Shown here: positions 7,366 to 63,040 of the stretch, piece after piece
Layout: every line of letters begins with the position of its first letter
How positions within the stretch are numbered: position 1 is the first letter of the stretch
NCBI GenBank assembly: GCA_050249535.1
Contig: JBFWQI010000001.1
Coordinates: 149,541 to 213,540, forward strand
DNA length: 64,000 nucleotides
Direction: 5' to 3'
Source: Blastocatellales bacterium
Lineage (GTDB): Bacteria > Acidobacteriota > Blastocatellia > RBC074
The notes under the pieces: generated by a model
The model's input: only the letters and a program-made list of their open reading frames with translations
What the model was told of the DNA's origin: nothing
Database searches by the model: none
Position numbers and translations under genes: made by a program

Positions 7366-9949
<2,584 letters not shown>

Positions 9950-10075
9950 GCATGGAGTCCCGCATGGAGTCCCGTATGGAGTCCCGACATAAGGCGGGGT
10001 ATTCAGTGATCAAACGAAGCTCTCATTGATAACCAAATAACCCGCCTGAATTCGGGACTCCATACGGGACTCCTT
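9950..10075. repeat. Nested inverted repeat built from 12-bp YATGGAGTCCCG tandem units, immediately after the response-regulator stop codon.
   Basis: The sequence reads gcatggagtcccgcatggagtcccgtatggagtcccg ... cccgcctgaattcgggactccatacgggactcc. The outer stem is about 21 bp and the inner stem aggcggg/cccgcct encloses a loop of about 50 nt. Confidence 0.5.
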
Positions 10076-10433
10076 TTCGAGCTCCTCGATGAATCGATCG
10101 ACGGTCAGTTCGGCCAGGGATTCGTCCGGAGTTGTGAGAAGGCAAAGTGAAGTTCCGTCCCCGGGGCTGACGCAGGATCTGAAGAGTCCCGTTCCATACT
10201 CTCTGATGACGCAGGCAATCCATCCTTTCCGGTCGGCCATAATAATCGTCCTTTCCATTTTTCATCCCTTGATCTGTCTGAGTGAAGTTCGCTTATCTCA
10301 AGACGCCAGAAGGCGACCGAAGTTTCAAAATATTGCCGACGTCGGAGCCGGACTTCTCATTCCAATCTCATCTGTTTTGATTTAGCATGGCTCGGAAAAA
10401 AATCACTCTTGAGTCCATCCCTCGAAAGGAGAA

Positions 10434-12641
<2,208 letters not shown>

Positions 12642-40394: not shown

Positions 40395-43300
40395 ATGCTC
40401 GCCATGAGTGGAAAAAGGCTGAAAGCCGAATTGTGGCTTCCTGACCGCATCACCTCCATCAGGATAGGTCTTCTTTTCCTTGCAGTCATATCCGTTCTCC
40501 AGTCGGATCGTGCGATTGTGACCGGGGAAGCGACCACTGGCGGCTCCAGCGGGTTGAGTCGCTCCGGCGCTGCGACGATCACCGTTCAAAACGCGAACGA
40601 CAGCGGGCCCGGCTCGCTTCGAGACGCTATCTCAGCCGCATCTCCCGGGGATACCATCAACTTTTCATCAGGAGTGGTAAGCCTCGGCGCGATCAATCTG
40701 ATCAGCGGTGAGTTGCTGATCAACAAGAACCTGAGGATCGAAGGACCCGGGCACGGATTGCTGGTTGTCCAACGAAGCGCTTCCGCTCCTGACTTCAGAA
40801 TATTGAAGATCACCGGCGGAGCGGTTGTCACAATAGCCGGGCTCGATATTGCCAACGGGAGGGCGACTAATACTTCCTTACCTCAAGAGGACGATGGCGG
40901 TGGAATACAGATTATCAGCAGCGACCTGACGCTCAGCGGGTGCGTGATAAATGGAAACCATGCAACAGGAAGCGGGGGAGGCATCGATCTCATCGGCGGA
41001 TTGCTGACCATCTCGGGATGTACAATTAACGACAATACTGCTGATACCGGCGGCGGCATTAATGTCTATTTCGGTGCTGTTCTGGCTCTCGATTCCTGCA
41101 CTATCAATGCCAACAGAGCGCAAAATGCATCCGCGATAGAGGTTGAGAACTCTGATGTCTACCTTACCAATGCGACTATCAGCGGCAACCTGACGCTGAC
41201 CGGCGGCGGCGCAATAAATAATTACGCGGCGACGGGGCAAAACTCAAAATTGGCATTTAACAACTGCACGGTCGTTTTTAATAAAAACTGGGGGGCGCTG
41301 GCCAAAGCTGATCCCGGCGGGCTGGCCGAGATCATTCTGTCCAGTTCGATTTTCGAGGACAATGGACAGAATTTCCAGACGAGCGGCTCCGGCGCATTTC
41401 TTACGAATATCTGCTGCAATTTTGACAGCGACGGTACGAGCGGTTTCGTTAACGGTGCGCAGGGCGGATTTGTGGGCAGCGCCAGTTCGCCCATTTCGGC
41501 TTTACTTGGTTCGCTGGCAGACAATGGGGGACTGACGAAAACGCATGCCCTGCGCTGGGGCAGTCCGGCGCTCGATGTCGGAGCGACCATCGGCGGGCCG
41601 GTTGTCGATCAGCGTGATAATTCGAGATTCGGGCCGGAAGCCGACGGCGACGGCGACGGATTCGGCGCAGCCGACATCGGCGCATTCGAGGTGCAGAAGT
41701 ATATTGTCAATAATGAGATGGATTCAGGGCCCGGATCCCTCCGCCAGGCAATCACTGACAACAACAATTACGGCGGTGGACTGATTGCGTTCGATATATC
41801 CGGAGCCGGGGTTCATTCGATTGCTCCCCTGACGCCGTTACCCGTTGTTACAAGAACCGTGACGATTGACGGTTATTCTCAGCCCGGCGCCATGCCGAAA
41901 ACGAGTTTTCCTTTCACCGGCACCGTCATCAATATTGAATTGAGTGGCGCGAATCTGGCGCAGGGTGAAGGGCTTGAATTGCAGGCAGCATACAGCGTAA
42001 TCAGAGGCCTCGCCATCAATGGGTTCACCAACGGGATCATGCTTCGCGGAAGCAATGCGTCATTCAACAGTATTCTGGGTAATTTCATCGGCACGCATAC
42101 GACGGGCAAAATAGCTGTGCCGAATACATTCTCAGGCGTCAACATTCTGGAAGGTGCCGCAGGTAATCGTGTCGGTACAGAGGCGTTTGCCGACCATAAT
42201 CTGATCAGCGGAAACCTTGGAGCCGGGATAATAGTTCAATCGCCGGGCACGACTTCGAACACTATCGTCAGGAATTCGATCGGTCTGACTGTCGGAGGCG
42301 GCACTACGCTGGGGAACAAGGCCGGGCCGGGCATAAATCCCGGGTTCGGCATACTGATAGGTTTCGGTGCCAATCAGACCACGATCAGGCAGAACTTCAT
42401 TTCCTACAATGAAGCCGCCGGCATCGCTGTATATTCGGACAGTACGGCTCCGCAGCCGAAAGGCAACAAGATCTTCGATAACAACAGGATCCATTCAAAT
42501 GGCGGTTTAGGAATAGATCTCGGATTTGATGGGGTTACTCAGAACGATTCGGACGACTCGGACAGCGGGCCGAACGATCTTCAAAATTTTCCGGTTCTTG
42601 ATCCGATCACTACGCCGGGAACAATCACCGGCACTCTCACCAGCATTCCCGGTAAAACCTATCGAATCGAGCTTTTTTCCAGCTCGAAATGCGACAGTTC
42701 GGGATATGGAGAGGGCGAAGAGCCGGTGTCGGCAATCACTGCCGTTAACACCGACCCACAGGGCAAATTAACCTTCAGTTTCGGATACACACCGCCTTCG
42801 ACAAGGCCATACATCACTGCGACCGCAACGAATAATGATACCGATGAAACATCAGAGTTTTCGGCGTGTGTATATATTTCTCCGACTCTGACGCTGGTCA
42901 ATAATGTAAATAACGACAATGGCGGGACGCTGACGGCAGGTGATTTTCCTGTCGCCATCGACGGAAGCCCGGTTTCATGGGGAGTATCAATACCGGTCAG
43001 TGAGGGATCTCATACTGCCAGTCAAACGACAAAAAGTGGCTACAATGCCTCAACCTGGGGTGGAGACTGCGCAGCCGACGGAACGATCACCTTGGCGCCG
43101 GGCGAGAACAAGACCTGTACGATCACCAACGACGATATCGCGCCGTCACTGACGCTGGTCAAACAGGTGGTAAACAACAACGGCGGCACTGCACTCACGA
43201 CGGATTTCATCCTGAGTGCCGCAGGCCCCACGCCGATCTCAGGCGCCGGCAATGCTGCCAGCGATGCGAGCTTCAAGGCGGGAGTCTACGCATTGTCCGA

Positions 43301-44645
43301 GACCAACCTGCCGGGATATGTGGCCAGCGGCTGGTTATGCACCGGCGGAGTGCTGACAGGCTCAGACCTCACGCTGGGAGTGGGCGAGTCGGCGGTCTGC
43401 GTAATTGCCAACGATGATATTCCTGCCCAACTGACACTGATCAAATCAGTAATTAATGACAATGGCGGGACGCTGACGGCCAATGATTTCCCTGTCTTTA
43501 TCGACGGCAATCCGGTTTCGTGGGGAGTCACATTCAATCTCAATGCAGGAGTATATTCGGCGAGTGAGACCACCAGCTCCGGCTATACTGCTTCGCCCTG
43601 GGGGGGAGACTGCGCTGCTGACGGGACGGTCGTCCTTGCGCCGGGCGACAGCAAGATCTGCAGGATTACCAATGACGATATCCCTCTGACCCCTCCAACA
43701 ATCACCGGGATGGTCGTCTTTGATAATCTGATCATCGCAAGCGGGACAGGTTATGTCGATCCGGTGCAGGTGCTGATCGACGGCGTCGGGTTTTACGACC
43801 CGGCGAAGGTGGAGAGTCAGGGGACCGTGATCAGGCAGGCCGGACTGCTTTCGGACGGACGAACGATCCTTCAGGCAACGCCGGCGGGCAAGCCGGTCAC
43901 CATAGAGATCGTCAACAGCGGCGGTTCGAGAACTGCATATACATACACGCGCAGCCGCACGTTTACCCCATCGGATGGGGTGAGCCGCAAGCCTCGCGTG
44001 CCGCCGATCCAGTTGACCAGTGTAGTCTTCGACGACATAGCCAAAACAGTAGAGATTACAGGCCTGCTGACAGGGCTGGCGCCGAATACCGTTTACACGA
44101 TCTATATTCTCTACACGCCCTCGGGTGACGACGGCTCTGAGACGAAGAGCTGTCAGGATGCGGCAAATTTAGAGAAGACCATCGTTCTCGAGGCATTCAC
44201 AATCAGGACGGACGAACGAGGTAATGCCAAATTCAACCGGAAATATCCGGTCGAAAAAGGGAAGGGCTTCATCAATGCGATCGCGATTCCGGCCACAGGT
44301 AACCAGGTTCCCGTGACCTCGAACTGCCTCGGTGCGGCTCCGCCTCCCGGTCCGGCGATCTTCGAGATCAGGCTTGACCTGCAATCCGGCCAGCAGAGCG
44401 ACGATCGGATGATCATCATCGGGTTCGGATTCAACGAACCCAGGGTCTTCATCAATGATATTCCGTTTGTCGAAAATCCGATGCCTGAAACCCATCAGAA
44501 TATTATCGGGCAGCAACTGGAGCTGAAGGGGAGTCTGGAAGGCGGCCTGAGAATCCGGGACCTGATTAAACCCGGAGCGACGGTGCGAATCAGGGTCACG
44601 AACGGCAACGGAGGCTCGACCCAGTACTTTTTCAGGTATCGATAA
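40395..44645 (+). CDS. Giant secreted or surface protein (1416 aa). It has a Pmp-like parallel beta-helix region, three tandem 90-95-aa beta-sandwich repeats and further C-terminal Ig-like domains.
   Basis: There is an N-terminal signal/anchor. Repeated GGGI...LTLSGCxINxN units resemble polymorphic-membrane-protein and right-handed beta-helix repeats. Three repeats (at about 42880, 43150 and 43430) follow the pattern [21 protein letters not shown]...[36 protein letters not shown]. Their DNA has diverged to about 75% identity. Confidence 0.7.
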
Positions 44646-44674
44646 TCGAACATTATCGACCCCGGAGCGGACGG

Positions 44675-48613
<3,939 letters not shown>

Positions 48614-48646
48614 TTTCATATTCCAGACGGCAATAATCTGATCCGA

Positions 48647-51600
48647 ATGAACCACCTCAACACGCCTCGAGGAGGCGATGAAAATCCGTATGTCGGCCCC
48701 CGGCCTTTCGAGACCGGGCGACGGCTCTTCGGCCGGGACAGGGAGACGGAGGATCTCTACTACCTGCTCAGCGCTGAGCGGATCGTGTTGCTCTATTCGC
48801 CGTCGGGCGCAGGCAAGAGTTCGCTGATTCAGGCCGGCCTTGTGCCGCGCCTGGCGGGCAAGTTCGATGTCTGGGGACCGACGCGCGTCAATCTGCAACC
48901 CTCCGGCGAGTTGCCCGCGGGAGTCAATCGTTATGTCAGGAGCGCCATGCTCGGGCTGGAGCAGGGCATACCCGAATCGCGCCGCCGCCCGGAGTCTGAG
49001 CTGGTCGGGCTGTCGCTGGCGGATTACGTCAGCGGGCGTCCGCGCAGGCGATCCGCGCCGGACAACATTGTGATCATCTTCGATCAGTTCGAGGAGATAC
49101 TGACCGTCGATCCGCTGGCGGTCGAGGCGAAGAAGGAGTTTTTCAATCAGCTCGGCGAGCTTCTGCTCGATCCCCGCATCTGGGCGCTGTTCGCGCTGCG
49201 AGAAGACTATCTGGCTCCGTTCGACACGTACGCTGAGATGATTCCGACGCACCTCAGAAACCGGTTTCGACTGGATCTGCTCGGGCGTGAGTCGGCGCGC
49301 GAGGCGATCGTCAATCCGGCTCGCGACGGCGGCCGCGAATTCGCCGATGAGGCCGTGGAAAAGCTGGTCAGCGATCTGGCGACGGTCAAGGTGCAACAGC
49401 CCGACGGGAAGTTCATAGACCAGCTCGGACAGCACGTCGAACCTCTTCAGCTTCAGGTCGTCTGCCGCCGGCTCTGGGAGAGGATGCCGGATGAAGACAG
49501 GCGCATCGATCTCGAGGATGTCCTCGAACTCGGCAACGTGACCGAGGCGCTGTCAGGTTATTACGCCGGTGAAGTCGGAAAACTGGCCGCGGGCGATGAC
49601 CGGACCGCTCGCGAGATCAGGGAATGGGTCGACGAAAAGCTGATCACTGCGGACGGCATCAGGTCGCAGGTGCTGCGCGGCGCCGGACGGAGCGAGGGGC
49701 TCGACAACGATCTGATCGCGCGGCTGATCAACACCCACCTCATCCGCGCCGAGCAGCGCGTCGGAGCGGTCTGGTACGAACTCGCCCATGACCGCCTGAT
49801 CGCTCCGATCAGAGAGGACAATCGCCGGTGGTTCGATTCGCATCTCCATCAGGTTCAGAAACTCGCCAAGATCTGGGGGGCGCAGGATGAGCCGCCGGGG
49901 CTTCTGCTGGCGGGGAAGGAGCTCGAGGAGGCCCGGCAATGGGCCGCCCGAAACGATCGGATTCTAGATCTCGAGCGCCGGTTCATCGAAAAATCGACCG
50001 TCCGTCAGGAGCAGATAGAACGCGAGCGCCGTCAGGCGATCAGGCAGCGCAGAATGCTCCGAATCGTGAGCGTGCTGACGGTCCTTGCGATCGCGGCTGC
50101 GATTGTGGCGTTCTGGCAGATGCGTGTGGCTGAACAGAAGGAGCGGGATCTGCAGGCAAGTCTCAGGACTTCGCGCGGTCTGCTCTACGTCGCCAGTCAG
50201 TTGCAGGCATGGGAAGCGTACGACGCCAGACAGTATTCCCAGGCCGCCGAGTATCTGGAAAGCTCCATGCCGGACGCGACGGTTGGAGGTCCCGATGTCA
50301 GAAGTTACGACTGGTATCTGCTCTGGCGGTTGATGCACGACGAAAAGCAGACTCTGGCCGGCCATCGTTCCAATGTCACCTCTGTCGTCTTCTTTCCCGA
50401 CGGGCGGACTGCGGCGAGCGGTGATGCCGGCGGCGAACTGAGAGTCTGGGATACGGCTTCCGGAAAAGAAGTGCGGACGATTGCGGATGCCTCCGATTCG
50501 ATCAGCTCGATGGCGCTATCCGGCGATGGAAGAATGCTGGCTGTCGGCGGAACGAAAGCAGTAAGGCTCTTCGAGACAACGAACTGGAAGATGATCAGGG
50601 AAATTGCGGCCATTCAGTCCCCGGCCCTCTCGCTTGCATTCGCGACCGGCGGGAAGATGCTGGCCTCAGGGCATGCCGACGGCACCGTCGTGCTCCGGAA
50701 TCCGGGAGATGGAAGTGAGCTTCAACCGCGCCTTGAAAAACATGACGCCGGCGTGATCGCGGTTTCATTCTCGCCGGACGGCAATTTCCTGGCCTGTGGC
50801 GATCTGGACGGCACAGTAAAGGTGTGGGATGTCGGGAACGGAAATCGACGGCAGGAGGCCTTGCTCCTGCTTCAGACCACGCTCACCTCGCTCGCATTTT
50901 CGCCGGACGGCAGCAAGCTGGCGATCGCATACGGAGCCGGCATCATCAGCCTGCGGAATGCGGCTGACCGCCGCGAAATATGGAAGACAACAAACGGCGG
51001 AGCTATCATCAACACGATACGGTTTTCGCCCGACGGTAAACTGCTCGCCTCCGCGTCGGTGGACGGGAGCATCAGGCTGATCGATGCGGCGACAGGCACT
51101 GAAGCGCGGGCGCTCAAGGGCCATCTCGCCAGCGTCAGATCCTTTGCCTTCTCTCCCGATGGGCGCTCGCTGGTCAGCGGAAGCCACGATCATACCGTCA
51201 GGATCTTCGATCTGACGGCGCTGCCTGAATATCCGAAACTTTCCGGACACGACAAGGACGTCATTGCCGTTCGCTATTCCGCCGACGGTCGCATGATCGC
51301 GAGCGGAAGCGAGGACGGGACGGTCGCCCTGTTCGATGCCGGGAGCCGCAAGTTGCGCTGGCGATCAGAAGACCAGGGATCGCCGGTCAATGCGATAGCG
51401 CTCAGTCCTGACGGGAGCCGTCTGGCAGGCGGCGCGGGCGACGGGAAGCTCCGCTTGTGGGATGCCGCGAACGGATCGACGCTCTGGCCTCAGCCGCAGG
51501 TCCACGGCGAAAGCATCAAGTCCGTCGCTTTTTCAACGGACGGAAAGTCGCTGGCCAGCGGTAGCGATGACGGTTCGATCGTGATTCACGCGGCGTCTGA

Positions 51601-52150
51601 CGGGAAGGTCGAGCGGGAGCTCAAAGGCCACGAAGGCGCGGTCATTGCGGTTGCTTTCTCGCCCGACGGCACTACGCTCGCAAGCGGAGGCGAGGACGGA
51701 TCGATCCGTCTTTGGGACTTCACAAAAGGAAACCTGATCAGAAAGCTCGACGGGCACAAGGTGCCGGTCAGTTCGCTCAGCTTCTCGATGAGCGGAACTT
51801 TACTTGCGAGCGGCAGCGACGATCAGACGGTCAGGCTGTGGGATGTTCGGAGCGGCGTCGCAGTCCGCTCGCTCGAAGGGCATAGTCTGTACGTGCTGGC
51901 AGTCGACTTCACGCCGGACGAGAGGACGCTGGCCAGCGTCAGCGACGGCGCGATATGGCTGTGGGACGTCGGAACCGGCAAACTGTTGCGAAAGATCAAA
52001 GAGGAGTTCGAGTCCGTCACGTCGGTCTCATTCTCGCCCGACGGGCGAACGCTGGCGGGCGGCATCAGCAACGGCAGTATCCATCTCTGGCCCGGCGCCC
52101 GGGACGAGCAGATCACGCGACAGTGCGGCAGGTGCGCATCGAAACGATGA
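48647..52150 (+). CDS. STAND-type P-loop NTPase (nSTAND-like, NPYxG...FFGRD family) followed by a predicted transmembrane helix and about 14 WD40 repeats (1167 aa).
   Basis: The N-terminal motif is NPYVGPRPFETGRRLFGRDRETEDLYYLL. Walker A is SPSGAGKSS at residues 51-59 and Walker B is IVIIFDQFEE at about 141-150. A hydrophobic helix (IVSVLTVLAIAAAIVAFW) lies at about residues 472-490, nt 50054-50117. Repeated WD40 units of the form GHxxxVxSVAFSPDGxxLASGSxDGTVRLWD run from about nt 50320 to 52140. Confidence 0.8.
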   Translation: MNHLNTPRGGDENPYVGPRPFETGRRLFGRDRETEDLYYLLSAERIVLLYSPSGAGKSSLIQAGLVPRLAGKFDVWGPTRVNLQPSGELPAGVNRYVRSAMLGLEQGIPESRRRPESELVGLSLADYVSGRPRRRSAPDNIVIIFDQFEEILTVDPLAVEAKKEFFNQLGELLLDPRIWALFALREDYLAPFDTYAEMIPTHLRNRFRLDLLGRESAREAIVNPARDGGREFADEAVEKLVSDLATVKVQQPDGKFIDQLGQHVEPLQLQVVCRRLWERMPDEDRRIDLEDVLELGNVTEALSGYYAGEVGKLAAGDDRTAREIREWVDEKLITADGIRSQVLRGAGRSEGLDNDLIARLINTHLIRAEQRVGAVWYELAHDRLIAPIREDNRRWFDSHLHQVQKLAKIWGAQDEPPGLLLAGKELEEARQWAARNDRILDLERRFIEKSTVRQEQIERERRQAIRQRRMLRIVSVLTVLAIAAAIVAFWQMRVAEQKERDLQASLRTSRGLLYVASQLQAWEAYDARQYSQAAEYLESSMPDATVGGPDVRSYDWYLLWRLMHDEKQTLAGHRSNVTSVVFFPDGRTAASGDAGGELRVWDTASGKEVRTIADASDSISSMALSGDGRMLAVGGTKAVRLFETTNWKMIREIAAIQSPALSLAFATGGKMLASGHADGTVVLRNPGDGSELQPRLEKHDAGVIAVSFSPDGNFLACGDLDGTVKVWDVGNGNRRQEALLLLQTTLTSLAFSPDGSKLAIAYGAGIISLRNAADRREIWKTTNGGAIINTIRFSPDGKLLASASVDGSIRLIDAATGTEARALKGHLASVRSFAFSPDGRSLVSGSHDHTVRIFDLTALPEYPKLSGHDKDVIAVRYSADGRMIASGSEDGTVALFDAGSRKLRWRSEDQGSPVNAIALSPDGSRLAGGAGDGKLRLWDAANGSTLWPQPQVHGESIKSVAFSTDGKSLASGSDDGSIVIHAASDGKVERELKGHEGAVIAVAFSPDGTTLASGGEDGSIRLWDFTKGNLIRKLDGHKVPVSSLSFSMSGTLLASGSDDQTVRLWDVRSGVAVRSLEGHSLYVLAVDFTPDERTLASVSDGAIWLWDVGTGKLLRKIKEEFESVTSVSFSPDGRTLAGGISNGSIHLWPGARDEQITRQCGRCASKR

Positions 52151-52173
52151 TCGGAATACCTGGAGAATAGAAG

Positions 52174-54843
52174 ATGGCGGATCAGTCGAAATTTCTGCAT
52201 TTCAACGGCATCAATGGAGCGACCGGCGATTACGGCATTCCACCGATGACCGGCGAGGAACTGGCCGGCTTCATCAAAGGTGAGTCGGCTCCCGAGAACC
52301 TTGCCGAGCTCAAGTTTCGCCGGCAGCAGGCCTCGCAGAGCCATTACGGCGTCAAGGAAGGCGTCGATCCGAAGAAACTCGACGAAGCCGGGTGGGGAGT
52401 GATCTTCGCGCACGATGCCGCGCCCGGGATCAGGGAGGCGCTCAAGCCTCTGCTCGACCTTCGCCAGGAGCAGGCCGGAACGCGGTTTCGCATTTACGAG
52501 GGCGGAAACGGGTATCGGGTCGGGAAGGACACCAAGAGTTCATTTCTTGCCAGGCACGGCGCCGGGCCCGGCCCTGCCGATCCGGACAAGGTGCCTTATT
52601 ACCTTCTGATCGTCGGCGGTCCTGATGTCATCCCCTATCGTTTTCAGTCGCAACTGGACGTCCAGTACGCCGTCGGCCGCATTCATTTCGAGACTCTCGA
52701 GGATTACGCCGTTTATGCTCAGAGCGTGGTCGCGGCCGAAAACGGCGGGATAAAGCTGGCGCGAAGGCTGAGCTTTTTCGGCGTGACGAATCCGGATGAT
52801 CCGGCCACCGGAGCTTCCGAACAGTCTCTGGTCAGCCCGTTGTATGCATATTTCAAGGACCGTCCCGGATGGCAGGTCGAAGCGATTCTCAAGGAGCAGG
52901 CCGGCAAGTCGAAGCTGGCTGAGTTGCTGGGAGGAGGCGCCACTCCGGCGCTGCTCTTCACTGCCAGCCACGGCATGGAGTTCCCTCTCGGGCATGCCAT
53001 GCAGATTCCGCACCAGGGGGCACTGCTTTGCAGCGACTGGCCGGGCCCGAAGAATTTTCACGGAGCGATCCCTGAAGACTTCTACTTCGCCGGTGACCAT
53101 CTGGCGAGTGACGCGAGACTGGCGGGACTGATCAGCTTCCATTTCGCCTGTTATGGCGGAGGCACTCCTGAACTGGACGAATTCGCCCAGCAGGCATTCA
53201 AGGGGCGCCAGGCCATCGCGCCGAAGGCTTTCCTGTCTGGTCTGCCCACACGGATGCTGAGCCACCCCAAAGGCGGGGCGCTGGCCGCGATCGGTCATGT
53301 CGACAGGGCATGGTCGACATCATTCGCATGGTCTGGGGCGGGCGCCCAGACGACGGTCTTCGAGAGCACTATCCAGCGCCTGATGGATGGCCATCCGGTC
53401 GGCTCGGCGCTCGAATATTTCAACGAAAGATATGCCGAGTTATCGACCGTTCTCAGCGATGAACTGGAAGAGATCCAGTATGGAAAGATCGTCGAACCGT
53501 ACGAACTGGCAGGCATGTGGACGGCCAACAACGATGCGCGCGGTTACATGATCCTTGGAGACCCCGCAACACGATTGCCGCTTGCGGCCGACGGGGAAGA
53601 ATCTCGTGAACGGCAGGCGATCGAGATCGTTCCATATACCGCGGGCAACGCGACGGCTCCGCCGCCGGTTGCTTCCGCGCCGGCTGATAGACCGCCGGCC
53701 GAACCCGGCCCCGCGAGCTTCAGCGTTCCCACAACGGCCGGGGACGATGTTCTCTTCAGCGCTTTTCACCCGCGGGCGCTCGATGTCGGAGAGTGGCAGA
53801 AACTGCTGATATACGCTCATCTGCAGGAAGCCCTCGATGCGATCAAGACCGACTCAGGGCAGGTGCTGGGATTGAAGTCGCCCGACTATCGACAGTCTGA
53901 GGCCAAAGCGACCGCCAAGATCGCCCATGGGACCGAAATCACACTCGTCCCGCAGGCGGATGGACTGGAATTCAAGCCTCAAAGCGCCACGCTGACGTGG
54001 TCAGGCGCATGGCAGCGTGCGGATTTTGAAATGGCCGCGACCGACAAGCGTGCCGGCCATGTCGTGACGGGAACGGTCGCATGCTATGTCGGCCCGTTGC
54101 TGATCGCCCAGATCAGGTTGCCGGTGGTAGTCAAGCGCCCCGGGGCTGCAATCGAACCGGAGGTCGACGGGCAGGCGGTCGAATCGGCCAAAATGTATCA
54201 GGCTGTCTTCGCCTCCTATTCACACGCCGACACGCAGGTGGTCGAGGCGGTCGAAGCCGCCTACAAAGCCCTCGGAATGGATTACCTGCGCGATGTGATG
54301 ACTCTCAAGAGCGGGCAGAAATGGTCCGATCAGCTGCTCAAGATGATCGACGATGCAGACATCTTCCAGCTCTTCTGGTCGGACAAGTCCAGCGCGTCAC
54401 CGTATTGCGAGCAGGAGTGGCAGTACGCGCTGAGCCTGGCAGAGCGCAAGGGGCCGGCCTTCATCCGGCCGGTCTATTGGCAGAAGCCGATTCCGAAGGT
54501 GCCGGAGGGACTTCGCGCGCTCCACTTCGCGCCGGTCGATTTCAGCCGTTTCATCGCTCCCGCCGCGAAGCCGGAACAGCCTGCGATTACAGCGCCGGTC
54601 GAAATTGACGATGAGCTCAAGAAACTGACCGTTTCGACATACACCGTATCCGATCCGGCGAATCCTCAAAATCCGCGACTCGTAGCGAGGTCGCGCATCA
54701 CGCTCGATGGCGATGTCGAGAACTTTGTGCTGGAGAATCTGACTGCTGACGATGAGAAATACCTTGAGCTTCACCATCGGATGTCGGGAGAGGCCGCGTC
54801 TGCGCGTCTGACATATATTGAAAAGCTCGCGAAGAATCGTTAG
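52174..54843 (+). CDS. Fusion protein (889 aa): an N-terminal clan-CD caspase/gingipain-like cysteine-peptidase-like domain, a proline-rich linker, a beta-rich middle domain and a C-terminal TIR domain.
   Basis: Candidate catalytic His266 in LLFTASHGMEF and Cys326 in ISFHFACYGGG show the clan-CD HG...AC spacing. The TIR signature runs from about nt 54190 to 54540: YQAVFASYSHADTQVVEAVEAAYKALGMDYLRDVMTLKSGQKWSDQLLKMIDDADIFQLFWSDKSSASPYCEQEWQYAL. It includes the conserved Glu of TIR NADases in the CEQE motif. Confidence 0.7.
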   Translation: MADQSKFLHFNGINGATGDYGIPPMTGEELAGFIKGESAPENLAELKFRRQQASQSHYGVKEGVDPKKLDEAGWGVIFAHDAAPGIREALKPLLDLRQEQAGTRFRIYEGGNGYRVGKDTKSSFLARHGAGPGPADPDKVPYYLLIVGGPDVIPYRFQSQLDVQYAVGRIHFETLEDYAVYAQSVVAAENGGIKLARRLSFFGVTNPDDPATGASEQSLVSPLYAYFKDRPGWQVEAILKEQAGKSKLAELLGGGATPALLFTASHGMEFPLGHAMQIPHQGALLCSDWPGPKNFHGAIPEDFYFAGDHLASDARLAGLISFHFACYGGGTPELDEFAQQAFKGRQAIAPKAFLSGLPTRMLSHPKGGALAAIGHVDRAWSTSFAWSGAGAQTTVFESTIQRLMDGHPVGSALEYFNERYAELSTVLSDELEEIQYGKIVEPYELAGMWTANNDARGYMILGDPATRLPLAADGEESRERQAIEIVPYTAGNATAPPPVASAPADRPPAEPGPASFSVPTTAGDDVLFSAFHPRALDVGEWQKLLIYAHLQEALDAIKTDSGQVLGLKSPDYRQSEAKATAKIAHGTEITLVPQADGLEFKPQSATLTWSGAWQRADFEMAATDKRAGHVVTGTVACYVGPLLIAQIRLPVVVKRPGAAIEPEVDGQAVESAKMYQAVFASYSHADTQVVEAVEAAYKALGMDYLRDVMTLKSGQKWSDQLLKMIDDADIFQLFWSDKSSASPYCEQEWQYALSLAERKGPAFIRPVYWQKPIPKVPEGLRALHFAPVDFSRFIAPAAKPEQPAITAPVEIDDELKKLTVSTYTVSDPANPQNPRLVARSRITLDGDVENFVLENLTADDEKYLELHHRMSGEAASARLTYIEKLAKNR

Positions 54844-54873
54844 CCGGATCAGTAATTCTGAAGGGATGATTAG

Positions 54874-56965
<2,092 letters not shown>

Positions 56966-56979
<14 letters not shown>

Positions 56980-59014
56980 CACAACTTCCGAAGCCTCGAT
57001 GGCCGGTCTGAATCCGTATATCGGTCCGAAGCCCTTCGAAACGGGTCGCCGTATTTTCGGGCGCGATCGTGAGACAGAAGACCTCTACTACCTGCTGAGT
57101 TCCGAGCGGATAGTGCTGCTGCACTCTCCCTCCGGGGCAGGTAAGAGTTCGCTGCTTCAGGCCGGACTCATCCCCCGACTGGCCGGGAGATTCGATGTCT
57201 GGGGGCCGACGCGCGTCAATCTCCGCCCGCCGCCTGATCTCCCCGCCGGCGTCAACCGATATATCCGCAGCGCCATTCTGGGATTCGAGGAGGGGATACC
57301 TCAAAGCAGGCGTCGAAGCGAAGACCAGCTCAATCAGATGACGCTGGCCGAATATGTCAATAACCGGCCGAGGAGGCGATCGGCTCCTGAAAACATCGTA
57401 CTGATCCTGGACCAGTTCGAGGAGATCCTCACCTCCGGTCCGCTGGAGATTGCAGCGAAGCGCGAATTCTTCTCGCAGATCGGCACGCTGCTGCTCAATC
57501 CCAGGATCTGGGCCATCTTCTCGCTTCGCGAAGATTATCTCGCCCCGCTAGATCCATATTCCGGCTATGTCCCAACGCACTTCAAGAACCGGTTTCGCCT
57601 GGACCTGCTGACCCGTGAAGCGGCACTCGAGGCGATCGCCGGCCCCGCTTTGCAGGGCGGCCGCGAATTCACTCCTGAAGCTGTCGGAAAAGTGATCAAC
57701 GATCTCTCGACTGTCAAAGTGCAGCAGCCTGACGGATCGTTCATCGATCAGCCTGGCGAATATGTCGAGCCGTTGCATCTGCAGGTTGTCTGTCGCCGGC
57801 TCTGGAATCAGATGCCGGGTGACGACCTCCGGATCGATCTCGAGGATGTGGTCAATCTCGGCGATGTGTCGGAGGCGCTGTCCGGATACTATTCGTCCGA
57901 AGTCCGCGAAATAGCCGGCGGCGATGATACCCTAGAGCGAGAAATCCGGGAGTGGGTCGGAAACAGGCTGATTCGCGCCGGCGGAATACGCGGCCAGGTA
58001 TTGAAAGGGGCAGGCAAGAGTGAAGGACTGGACAACGACCTTATCGCTCAACTCGTCGATGCTCACCTTGTCAGGGGTGAAGTGCGCTCCGGTGCCGCCT
58101 GGTATGAGCTGGCTCATGATCGTCTGATCGAACCTGTCAGATCCGACAATAATAAATGGTTCGATGACCACCTCCACAAATTTCAGAAGGTTGCGCTGAT
58201 CTGGAATGCCAACGGCAACCCTGACAGCCTGCTCCTGCTCGGAGCGGATTTGAACGAGGCGAACGAGTGGAAGCAGTCGAATGCAGACAGGCTGACCGAA
58301 GTCGAGAATAAATTTCTTGAATCCTCGAACGCAAAACAGTCGGCAATCGATCAGAGGCGCAGCCTGCGAAAAATGAAGGTCGCCGGATGGGTCCTGGCCG
58401 CCGTGGTGCTCATTCTTTCAATCCTGGGTATTAATCTCTGGCTGGTTTATAAGCAGGTGGTGGCTGCCTGGTCCGAAGCGAAAATTCAAAGCGAACTCGC
58501 CAGTCAGCAGAAAATAATCGCTGAATCCAACATGAGGCTGGCGCAGGCTGAAGAGAAGAAGGCCAGGGACCTCAGCGAAGCTGCTCGCCAGCTCGCAGCG
58601 CGCGAACTTGCGCTCAAGCTGCAGAGCCTCGCCCGGCAGAAAAAACTCGACGAGGTGAGCGAAGTCATCGAGTCCATCAAGATAATCGCAGACAATGAAT
58701 TCAGATTCTCGGTCTCTGTCGCCCCGGCCGACGCCGAAGGGACAGGATTCGATACACTCTGGTGGATCGAATTACACCCGAAAAAGGAGTCGCTCGAAGG
58801 GAAGGCTGAAAAGATCGCGAGGATTTATTACATCCTCAATCACGAATCCTTTTACCAAAACCTGCGCGTCGGGCTGCCACAGAACAATTTCTTGTACAAG
58901 TATCGCGGATGGGGCTGCCTCGAAGAGGTGATGGCGATCGTCGAGTACAAGGATCCGAAGACTGCACCGTCAATCTCGTTCTTCGATCAATGCGCTGAAT
59001 GGAAGGAAAAATAG
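56966..59014 (+). CDS. Second STAND-type NTPase, paralogous to the 48647-52150 gene. It has a transmembrane helix, a coiled coil and an unknown C-terminal domain of about 110 aa in place of the WD40 repeats.
   Basis: MAGLNPYIGPKPFETGRRIFGRDRETEDLYYLLSSERIVLLHSPSGAGKSSL is about 80% identical to the first NTPase over roughly 400 aa, with Walker B ENIVLILDQFEE. A transmembrane helix (VAGWVLAAVVLILSILGINLWLV) lies at nt 58378-58452. A coiled coil of about 70 aa (SELASQQKIIAESNMRLAQAEEKKARDL...) follows. The start is ambiguous: 56966 overlaps the upstream gene by 14 nt, 56999 is the MAGLNPY start, and the ORF-track start is 56936. Confidence 0.75.
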
Positions 59015-59028
59015 AATGGGAGGCAAAG

Positions 59029-61463
<2,435 letters not shown>

Positions 61464-61488
<25 letters not shown>

Positions 61489-61666
61489 TTACGGTATCCC
61501 TCCTGCATTACTCCGGACGACATCGGCTTGCCGGTCTCATCGAGGATCACCGGATTGGCCTCGCGGGCGACGAAATAGAGCGCCACCAGGATGCCGATGA
61601 ACAACAGAAAGATCAGTCCGAGGATCAGCTGCAGAAATCTGCCGCCGCCCGGAGCTCCGGCTTTGC

Positions 61667-61670
<4 letters not shown>
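61464..61670 (-). CDS. Small single-transmembrane-helix membrane protein (68 aa) lying between ccoG and ccoI, in the position of CcoH/FixH.
   Basis: There is one hydrophobic helix (FLQLILGLIFLLFIGILVALYFV). It overlaps ccoI by 25 nt. I see no confident similarity to CcoS or CcoH. Confidence 0.3.

Positions 61671-63040
<1,370 letters not shown>

Follow-up and report, generated by a model that had tools for sequence, protein, structure and literature searches.

The stretch analysed here, called the window, comprises 64,000 nucleotides (nt) of contig JBFWQI010000001.1 from a Blastocatellales bacterium, and the gene under study, which we call B, occupies positions 56966–59014 of its + strand. B encodes 682 amino acids (aa) plus a stop codon, read as an nSTAND1 NTPase module, a transmembrane (TM) helix, a long helix and a predicted prokaryotic YEATS (pYEATS) domain. 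Upstream on the same strand lie a paralogue, gene A (48647–52150, 1167 aa; nSTAND1 NTPase, TM helix and WD40 propellers), a gene for a clan-CD (C25/gingipain-like) peptidase fused to a TIR domain (C25-TIR; 52174–54843, 889 aa; TIR_2 at E 4.8e-17, with a CEQEW motif at aa 745–749, and Peptidase_C25 at 1.2e-6) and a gene for a CHAT protease with a degenerate SIR2-like domain (CHAT-SIR2; 54874–56979, 701 aa; CHAT at 3.5e-26, SIR2_2 at 2.7e-14). Six co-directional + strand open reading frames (ORFs), from 40395 to 59014, are spaced by 23–33 nt, and the last pair overlaps instead. We propose that B is the sensor and switch subunit of a (CHAT-)SIR2/nSTAND1 conflict system, a reading that as a whole is the best explanation of the locus and to which we give a probability of about 0.6.

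The longest ORF for B begins at 56936, contains in-frame ATG codons at 56966 and 56999, and ends at 59014. Translation from 56966 (MTGS...) would begin inside the end of the CHAT-SIR2 gene (...DDWL and the stop codon at 56977–56979), so that the two genes share the 14 nt ATGACTGGCTCTGA at 56966–56979 (+); the preliminary description of this DNA had already placed the start of B across the CHAT-SIR2 stop. A 14-nt junction of the ATGACTGGCTCTGA type recurs in a related metagenomic contig (L001) and in loci L003 and L004, whose NTPases show 58–59% identity to B and lack an internal Met close to the N-terminus; a relic of it is seen in L005, and in L006 the gene calls overlap by 14 nt. In L064, which pairs a TIR protein with an nSTAND1-pYEATS protein, the overlap is 4 nt, and in L002 (CHAT-SIR2 with nSTAND1-pYEATS) it is 1 nt (TGATG) behind GGAGG. 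A Shine-Dalgarno-like purine run, AGGA (56953–56956, +), stands 9 nt 5′ of the ATG at 56966, and L003 (GGGAGG) and L004 (GGAGAG), like L002, have equivalent runs despite differing upstream protein sequence; every overlapping ATG compared has a purine-rich run in front of it. The start at 56936 was dropped on account of an ATG that is absent from L001, and 56999 is less likely given that an internal Met is missing at that place in L003 and L004 and that no purine run was seen in front of it. Since the overlap motif is kept in distant homologues, the comparison supports 56966 as the start of B; the same start has been called elsewhere for P0001, a 682-aa protein 99% identical to B. Judged from these junctions, coupling of the B start to CHAT-SIR2 is a conserved family trait. 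In the promoter and terminator scan, counts were at shuffle expectation and no intergenic terminator was found.

The NTPase module (57014–58285, +; aa 17 to ~440) matches Pfam nSTAND1 (PF20703) over aa 17–389 with 123.1 bits against a cut-off of 27.1 (E 2.7e-35). The full-length AlphaFold2 (AF2) model of B has a mean confidence (pLDDT) of 88.9, exceeding 90 over aa 11–470, and a Foldseek search with the NTPase returned an archaeal ATPase, ORC/Cdc6, Avs4 and Apaf-1. Both nucleotide-binding motifs are intact and invariant in two family alignments (A4 and A5): Walker A, SPSGAGKSS (57125–57151, +; aa 54–62), with G57, G59, K60 and S62 invariant, and Walker B, VLILDQFEE (57398–57424, +; aa 145–153), with D149–E152 invariant. 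B is accordingly predicted to be a cytoplasmic STAND-type P-loop NTPase for which nucleoside triphosphate (NTP) hydrolysis and oligomerisation would be expected. No NCBIfam model matched B, and a single-protein scan of species-representative genomes found no close relative of it.

Directly after this module, both paralogues have one strongly hydrophobic 19-mer at the equivalent place, in agreement with the preliminary description: VLAAVVLILSILGINLWLV in B (58391–58447, +; aa 476–494, Kyte-Doolittle 2.69) and aa 471–489 in A (2.50; about 50057–50113 in the window). Among the 63 complete genes that continue for more than 60 aa past the NTPase, 57 have such a segment directly behind it, and one is present upstream of the domain in 38 of the 41 pYEATS proteins of at least 450 aa. 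Lysine and arginine are commoner in its N-flank than in its C-flank in 70 of 73 cases (mean difference 3.2), and the helix of B is predicted to run N-in, C-out. Because the N-flank is positive and the N side carries the NTP-dependent module, the NTPase of B is probably inside the cell and the pYEATS domain outside the cytoplasmic membrane. Taken across relatives, these patterns imply that nearly the whole NTPase family would be STAND proteins with sensors outside the cytoplasm.

Between membrane and sensor, a long α-helical stalk is predicted (58463–58675, +; aa 500–570), to which coiled-coil character can be assigned at most as a prediction. The AF2 model has a helix at 445–488, a low-confidence break at 488–503, helices at 500–557 and 561–570 (pLDDT ~72) and then the β-sandwich. 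The stalk consists to 71% of A, E, K, L, Q and R, with no Pro and no Gly. Its heptad signal is weak: the 3.5-residue power was reached by 134 of 2000 shuffles, and in the best register hydrophobic residues occupy 65% of a/d positions versus 35% elsewhere. The coiled coil of roughly 70 aa described earlier thus survives as a predicted helix of that length with a weak heptad pattern.

The C-terminal domain (58706–59005, +; aa 581–680) had been described as an unassigned 110-aa unit; it is a separate folded domain in the model, and it can now be assigned. PF20305 aligns to aa 616–666 of B (profile positions 16–65 of 73) with 16.5 bits against a cut-off of 26.9 (E 0.0082). An exhaustive HMMER search with aa 559–682 returned 98 proteins at E ≤0.001; a word-indexed one with the C-terminal 133 aa had given no homologue. 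A Pfam scan of 79 of these identified pYEATS in 34 (E ≤0.01, best 1.1e-20) and nSTAND1 in 36; the eukaryotic YEATS family PF03366 was matched by 3 of the 79 (5.8e-9) and not by B. The AF2 model of aa 566–682, built from a 38-sequence alignment, is a seven-strand sandwich with a mean pLDDT of 94.9, in which about 105 aa are folded, so that the low-complexity, disordered tail considered in the preliminary description does not apply. Structure prediction followed by Foldseek, the route proposed there, returned a YEATS fold: the top 50 Protein Data Bank (PDB) matches are all YEATS domains (GAS41, Yaf9, YEATS2, ENL), with a best E of 5e-5 and a template-modelling score of ~0.56, and the predicted fold is the YEATS-type immunoglobulin-like β-sandwich.

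Three short motifs mark the domain. HESF (58841–58852, +; aa 626–629) falls on H-E-S-Y of the YEATS4 reader pocket, GWGC (58907–58918, +; aa 648–651) shares GWG with YEATS4 and adds a family-specific Cys, and FDQC (58982–58993, +; aa 673–676) supplies a second near-invariant Cys. The family profile aligns to the YEATS4 sequence with E 0.0077, placing HESF on LHESY and GWG on GWG. HESF and GWG are conserved across the 38 family members; in the family alignment G83 and G85 are invariant and C86 and C111 are present at 90% or more. In YEATS structures the loops that carry these two motifs form the acyl-lysine cage. Given the fold match, the motif register of the profile and the family membership, the modelled tail of B is a prokaryotic YEATS domain, a relative of the eukaryotic chromatin YEATS readers. 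Credit for introducing the prokaryotic YEATS domain reportedly belongs to Burroughs and Aravind (J Bacteriol 2020). In the model, C651 lies four residues before strand 655–661 and C676 three residues after the next strand, 669–673; should these strands form a hairpin, C651 and C676 would probably be adjacent, and a disulfide between them is probable on that arrangement. The pYEATS domain of L064 has no C-terminal cysteine, showing that the Cys pair is not universal.

The preliminary description put A and B at about 80% identity in both protein and DNA and took this to imply a recent duplication. Measured over the first 400 aligned residues, identity is 71% in aa and 69% in nt, falling to 68% and 67% over 446. 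The DNA segments given as an example, 48760–48850 and 57080–57170, are 16% identical as written, being out of register by 8 nt; after a shift of +8 nt (57088–57178) they reach 77%, and this is the best-conserved P-loop stretch. Similarity is not confined to the P-loop: the whole NTPase module (~460 aa) aligns, with BLASTP placing aa 16–460 of B on aa 13–457 of A (660 bits, E = 0) without large gaps, and the earlier view that these are paralogous NTPases with different modules after an equivalent TM helix stands, both belonging to one nSTAND1 subfamily. The age does not. Third codon positions are 46% identical, the longest exact word common to the two genes is 17 nt, and Nei-Gojobori estimates give a proportion of synonymous differences (pS) of 0.68, a synonymous distance (dS) of ~1.8 and a non-synonymous distance (dN) of 0.26, with synonymous sites near saturation. 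Several proteins from other genomes are nearer to B (identity 0.71 for P0004 and 0.70 for P0003 and P0005, against 0.67 for A), and P0006 is as close or closer. A neighbour-joining tree of 62 NTPase modules, which has no support values and is taken as suggestive, places the B clade (window, P0001, P0002) next to a larger sister clade, which includes the WD40-type A clade and proteins with other C-termini. L001 has the same four genes with the same flanks; since it already carries both A and B, their split predates the divergence of the window from L001. Recent tandem duplication of A into B was rejected on the dS value and on A not being the nearest relative, and by these measures A and B are old paralogues. 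Over its aligned NTPase module, A is identical to P0008, from a Blastocatellales bacterium metagenome-assembled genome (MAG) at NCBI.

The exchange of the sensor module, the other part of the earlier proposal, is borne out. Past aa 460, identity between A and B drops to 49%, 29% and 22% in successive 40-residue windows, and the B sensor has no match in A. The final 125 residues of B share 41% identity with the P0121 C-terminus, and the NTPases of the two proteins just 24%. Close relatives of the B NTPase carry WD40, TPR, GH19, FGE-sulfatase, DUF4337, DUF3455 and DUF1311/YecT-type tails. From this variety and the P0121 pattern it follows, at the level of sequence, that nSTAND1 lineages have swapped sensor modules, the breakpoint lying in the TM/stalk region. 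As a separate observation, gene A of the window (48647–52150) and that of L001 (890–4417) share 58% aa identity at a dS of 1.7, and gene B (56966–59014 versus 9216–11264) 85% at 0.6; within B, dS is 1.3 for pYEATS and 0.5 for the NTPase. The greater divergence of A from its L001 counterpart may reflect either fast-evolving sensors or replacement of A.

The gene directly upstream of B encodes the probable effector. Its CHAT half has CHG at aa 220–222 and SCES at aa 267–270. In the SIR2 half (56035–56532) all three catalytic motifs are lost: the NAD loop GAGxS is replaced by IVGTD, TTNYD with its Asn by LNASPD, and HLHG with the catalytic His by QIFG. On these motifs the protein would not be an active SIR2 NADase; stand-alone SIR2 partners at other loci keep GAGxS, TTNYD and HLHG. 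In PDB alignments a Phe of CHAT-SIR2 falls on the His of ThsA (7uxt) and of Sir2 (9v0g), 9v12 being the His-to-Ala mutant of 9v0g. The His is lost in every CHAT-SIR2 fusion with a locatable motif, and TTNY is kept in some (L011, L014, L020). The SIR2 half thus looks catalytically dead, and it is probably a docking or regulatory module, with CHAT as the active part.

The arrangement extends well beyond the window. A scan of species-representative genomes with the Walker B pattern yielded 514 genomic relatives and 80 loci (L007–L086) from many phyla. A (CHAT-)SIR2 or TIR gene ends no more than 200 nt upstream in 56 of the 77 NTPase genes of these genome loci, and the 56 upstream genes encode SIR2 (34), CHAT+SIR2 (18), TIR (2), CHAT (1) or SIR2+TIR (1). 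As the order effector-then-NTPase is the common one, B sits in the canonical slot and A is the extra paralogue; the direction of the duplication is probably the reverse of that first proposed, in that B and not A follows an effector gene. CHAT-SIR2 lies directly upstream of the NTPase in L001–L004, L006 and 18 genome loci. It occurs with a B-type NTPase alone in L002, L003, L004 and L006, and with an A-type NTPase alone in L005, a syntenic acidobacterial MAG that has A, C25-TIR and CHAT-SIR2 and a GH3 glycosidase gene in the place of B. There CHAT-SIR2 ends in ATGACTGGCTCTAA, followed by a 9-codon stub (L005 18417–18460), a junction relic compatible with loss of gene B from that genome. A C25-like gene accompanies 10 of the 18 CHAT-SIR2 loci and none of the 34 SIR2-only loci (Fisher p = 3e-6), a pattern of co-travel with CHAT-SIR2 and nSTAND1 that hints at a two-protease cascade.

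Several individual loci are worth recording. The C25-like genes are in L003, L007, L013, L017, L020, L024, L034–L036 and L038, and fusion of the C25-like domain to TIR is limited to the window, L001 and L005. In L064 (6469–10019; a Segetibacter MAG, Bacteroidota) a 505-aa TIR gene precedes an nSTAND1-TM-pYEATS gene, and in L011 (2019–13532; a Chloroflexia MAG) there are two tandem CHAT-SIR2 + nSTAND1 (+WD40) units, another case of stacked sensors.

The mechanism that we have in mind for this predicted immunity or programmed-death system would start with an envelope-side ligand binding the pYEATS pocket, the signal being relayed through the stalk and TM helix. The relay would release NTP-dependent oligomerisation of the NTPase, the oligomer would activate the co-translated CHAT caspase-like protease, and CHAT may in turn act on C25-TIR, leading to degradation of NAD+ and to arrested growth or death. 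Paralogue A, with its WD40 propellers, would provide a second input of the same kind; the earlier suggestion of two sensors on shared effectors is plausible. The ligand could be an acyl-amide (an acetamido sugar or a muropeptide) or a foreign protein; the acyl-amide or muropeptide is a guess from pocket conservation, the compartment predicted for the domain and the envelope-type modules that sibling proteins carry. The chain from ligand through oligomerisation and CHAT to C25-TIR is one that we infer by analogy with STAND systems, as described in PMC13581612 and PMC8195603. No adaptor domain linking NTPase and effectors was found, which is why the activation step has to be borrowed from other STAND systems and why it counts against our proposal.

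Other observations weigh against it as well. The pYEATS score of B is below the Pfam cut-off (16.5 versus 26.9 bits), and a search of the available literature found no paper on prokaryotic YEATS domains. The topology is read from hydrophobicity and charge bias only, the helix from TM segment to sensor has moderate model confidence and a weak heptad pattern, and the disulfide comes from secondary-structure positions and not from coordinates. B matched no family of PADLOC 2.0 at E ≤0.001, and the system belongs to a family of predicted systems defined computationally. Finally, the surroundings are no obvious defence island: the locus stands between envelope genes and a copper-ATPase/cbb3-oxidase cluster, in conserved synteny.

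Those envelope genes are two large same-strand genes at 40395–48613, separated by gaps of 29–33 nt with no predicted terminator; they encode a 1416-aa secreted protein (choice-of-anchor Q) and a 1312-aa TonB-dependent-receptor-like outer-membrane protein. The outer-membrane gene is syntenic with the system in L001 and L005 and a large upstream gene in L005, and the two may be functionally linked to the system. On the other side, at 59029–63040 (-), a convergent heavy-metal P-type ATPase gene (HMA) has its stop 14 nt past that of B, and a FixG-like ferredoxin gene comes next; this block, which runs into cbb3-type oxidase genes in L001, is ordinary housekeeping surroundings.

This setting bears on what the system is for. 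It might serve not against invaders but as a death switch in a soil acidobacterium, triggered by envelope stress, development or kin recognition. Such a reading would suit sensors facing the envelope, a conserved chromosomal position beside the genes of a TonB-like outer-membrane protein and of a large secreted protein rather than on a mobile island, and the link of nSTAND-type systems to bacteria of multicellular habit made in PMC7159879 and PMC8195603. We nevertheless think it distinctly unlikely: TIR, SIR2 and caspase-like protease effectors, sensor shuffling and faster sensor divergence are all typical of conflict systems, and presence or absence varies between close relatives (L005 versus the window). 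How the four genes are wired is a separate matter. A might act with C25-TIR only and B with CHAT-SIR2 only, with nothing shared, and there is something to be said for such a division, given that across phyla an nSTAND1 gene directly behind an effector gene is the standard unit, that CHAT-SIR2 with a B-type NTPase alone is found in L002, L004 and L006, and that the overlap ties B specifically to CHAT-SIR2. We doubt it, however, since in L005 A is the sole NTPase beside C25-TIR and an intact CHAT-SIR2, and since in at least 10 loci a single NTPase accompanies both a C25-like gene and CHAT-SIR2, from which it follows that one NTPase can serve both effectors; A would moreover precede its supposed effector, against the usual family order.

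Two further readings concern the role and orientation of B itself. That B is a modulator, forming mixed oligomers with A and tuning or restraining A's threshold, seems very improbable to us: no A-type partner accompanies the B-type genes of L002, L003, L004, L006 and the majority of genome loci, the Walker A and B motifs of B are intact, and its sensor pocket motifs are conserved as expected of a ligand-binding receptor. These points stand against the 71% identity across the whole oligomerisation module, the prediction that A and B share membrane and topology, and the dispensability of B in the syntenic L005. Improbable too is a hydrophobic segment that is a mere tether, leaving pYEATS in the cytoplasm to read acylated lysines on invader or host proteins. 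The alignment of HxSF and GWG with the YEATS4 acyl-lysine pocket would fit such a role, and characterised bacterial STAND sensors detect phage proteins in the cell (PMC13581612). However, a single segment of 19 residues (Kyte-Doolittle mean 2.7) leaves the two ends of the protein across the membrane from each other, and the NTPase depends on NTP in the cytoplasm; 70 of 73 relatives show a consistent charge bias, the two near-invariant cysteines, absent from eukaryotic YEATS domains, suit an oxidising compartment, and siblings carry GH19, DUF1311 and DUF3455 modules at the same position.

A bolder form of this proposal is tentative, and we would not expect it to hold in full: nSTAND1 proteins of the B type could be outside-in receptors with the sensor beyond the cytoplasmic membrane. 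In B, a disulfide-braced YEATS-like pocket would read an envelope acyl-amide cue, such as a piece of peptidoglycan set free by a competitor, a predator or a phage, and one TM helix would carry the signal to a caspase-like protease cascade in the cytoplasm. If true, this would be the first function assigned to a bacterial YEATS domain, our literature search having found none described for any, and a counterpart of surface pattern-recognition receptors. To our knowledge, every bacterial STAND sensor characterised so far detects intracellular targets; sensors separated from the NTPase by a membrane would be unlike these, and a YEATS-like pocket in that position raises the question of the ligand. 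B itself is no discovery, because nSTAND1 and pYEATS are already curated families and the fused architecture is publicly annotated, P0103 carrying both labels. For the TM-bearing (CHAT-)SIR2 + nSTAND1 arrangement we found neither a PADLOC model nor a paper in the literature. Loss of the SIR2 motifs where CHAT is fused suggests an enzyme domain turned adaptor, and annotating CHAT-SIR2 loci as NAD-depleting SIR2 effectors is inadvisable.

Among known systems, EACC1 (Kaur 2020) was rejected as a match, since its invariable part, a small TM protein that goes with a caspase gene, is arranged differently. Thoeris resembles the locus through ThsA: the SIR2-like half of CHAT-SIR2 has weak PADLOC and PDB matches to ThsA-type SIR2. 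Unlike ThsA, however, it has Phe for the catalytic His, has lost GAG and TTNYD, has no SLOG domain and is fused to CHAT, and membership was rejected on the PADLOC and PDB comparison. With Avs/AVAST and bacterial NLR-like proteins B shares a STAND NTPase, a variable C-terminal sensor and a cell-killing effector, but Avs proteins are soluble, single-chain and carry their own N-terminal effector, whereas B would span the membrane and is paired with an effector encoded by a second gene, to which it is coupled in translation; Avs/AVAST membership was rejected given the lack of a PADLOC match, an NTPase that starts from residue 16 and the TM helix.

The closer likeness is to nSTAND1 proteins, a class named by Kaur, Iyer, Burroughs and Aravind in 2021 (PMC8195603), with which B has in common a central NTPase, a variable C-terminal sensor and an association with TIR, caspase-like and NAD-processing effectors. 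The available excerpt describes coupling through an N-terminal adaptor (EAD or death-like); B, by comparison, has no domain N-terminal to its NTPase, which begins at residue 16, and differs from what is described there in having its effector as a separate upstream gene and a TM helix between NTPase and sensor. With PF20305 it shares the β-sandwich fold and conserved motifs, its subgroup being set apart by the TM helix and stalk before the domain and by the conserved Cys pair. As for the eukaryotic YEATS readers (GAS41/YEATS4, AF9, ENL, YEATS2, Yaf9), the H-x-S-aromatic and G-W-G loops align, but the B domain is only 13–22% identical to them, has Leu for the second pocket aromatic after GWG, bears two extra cysteines and is predicted to be extracytoplasmic; since there is no chromatin outside the cytoplasm, the ligand of B, if so placed, must differ from theirs.

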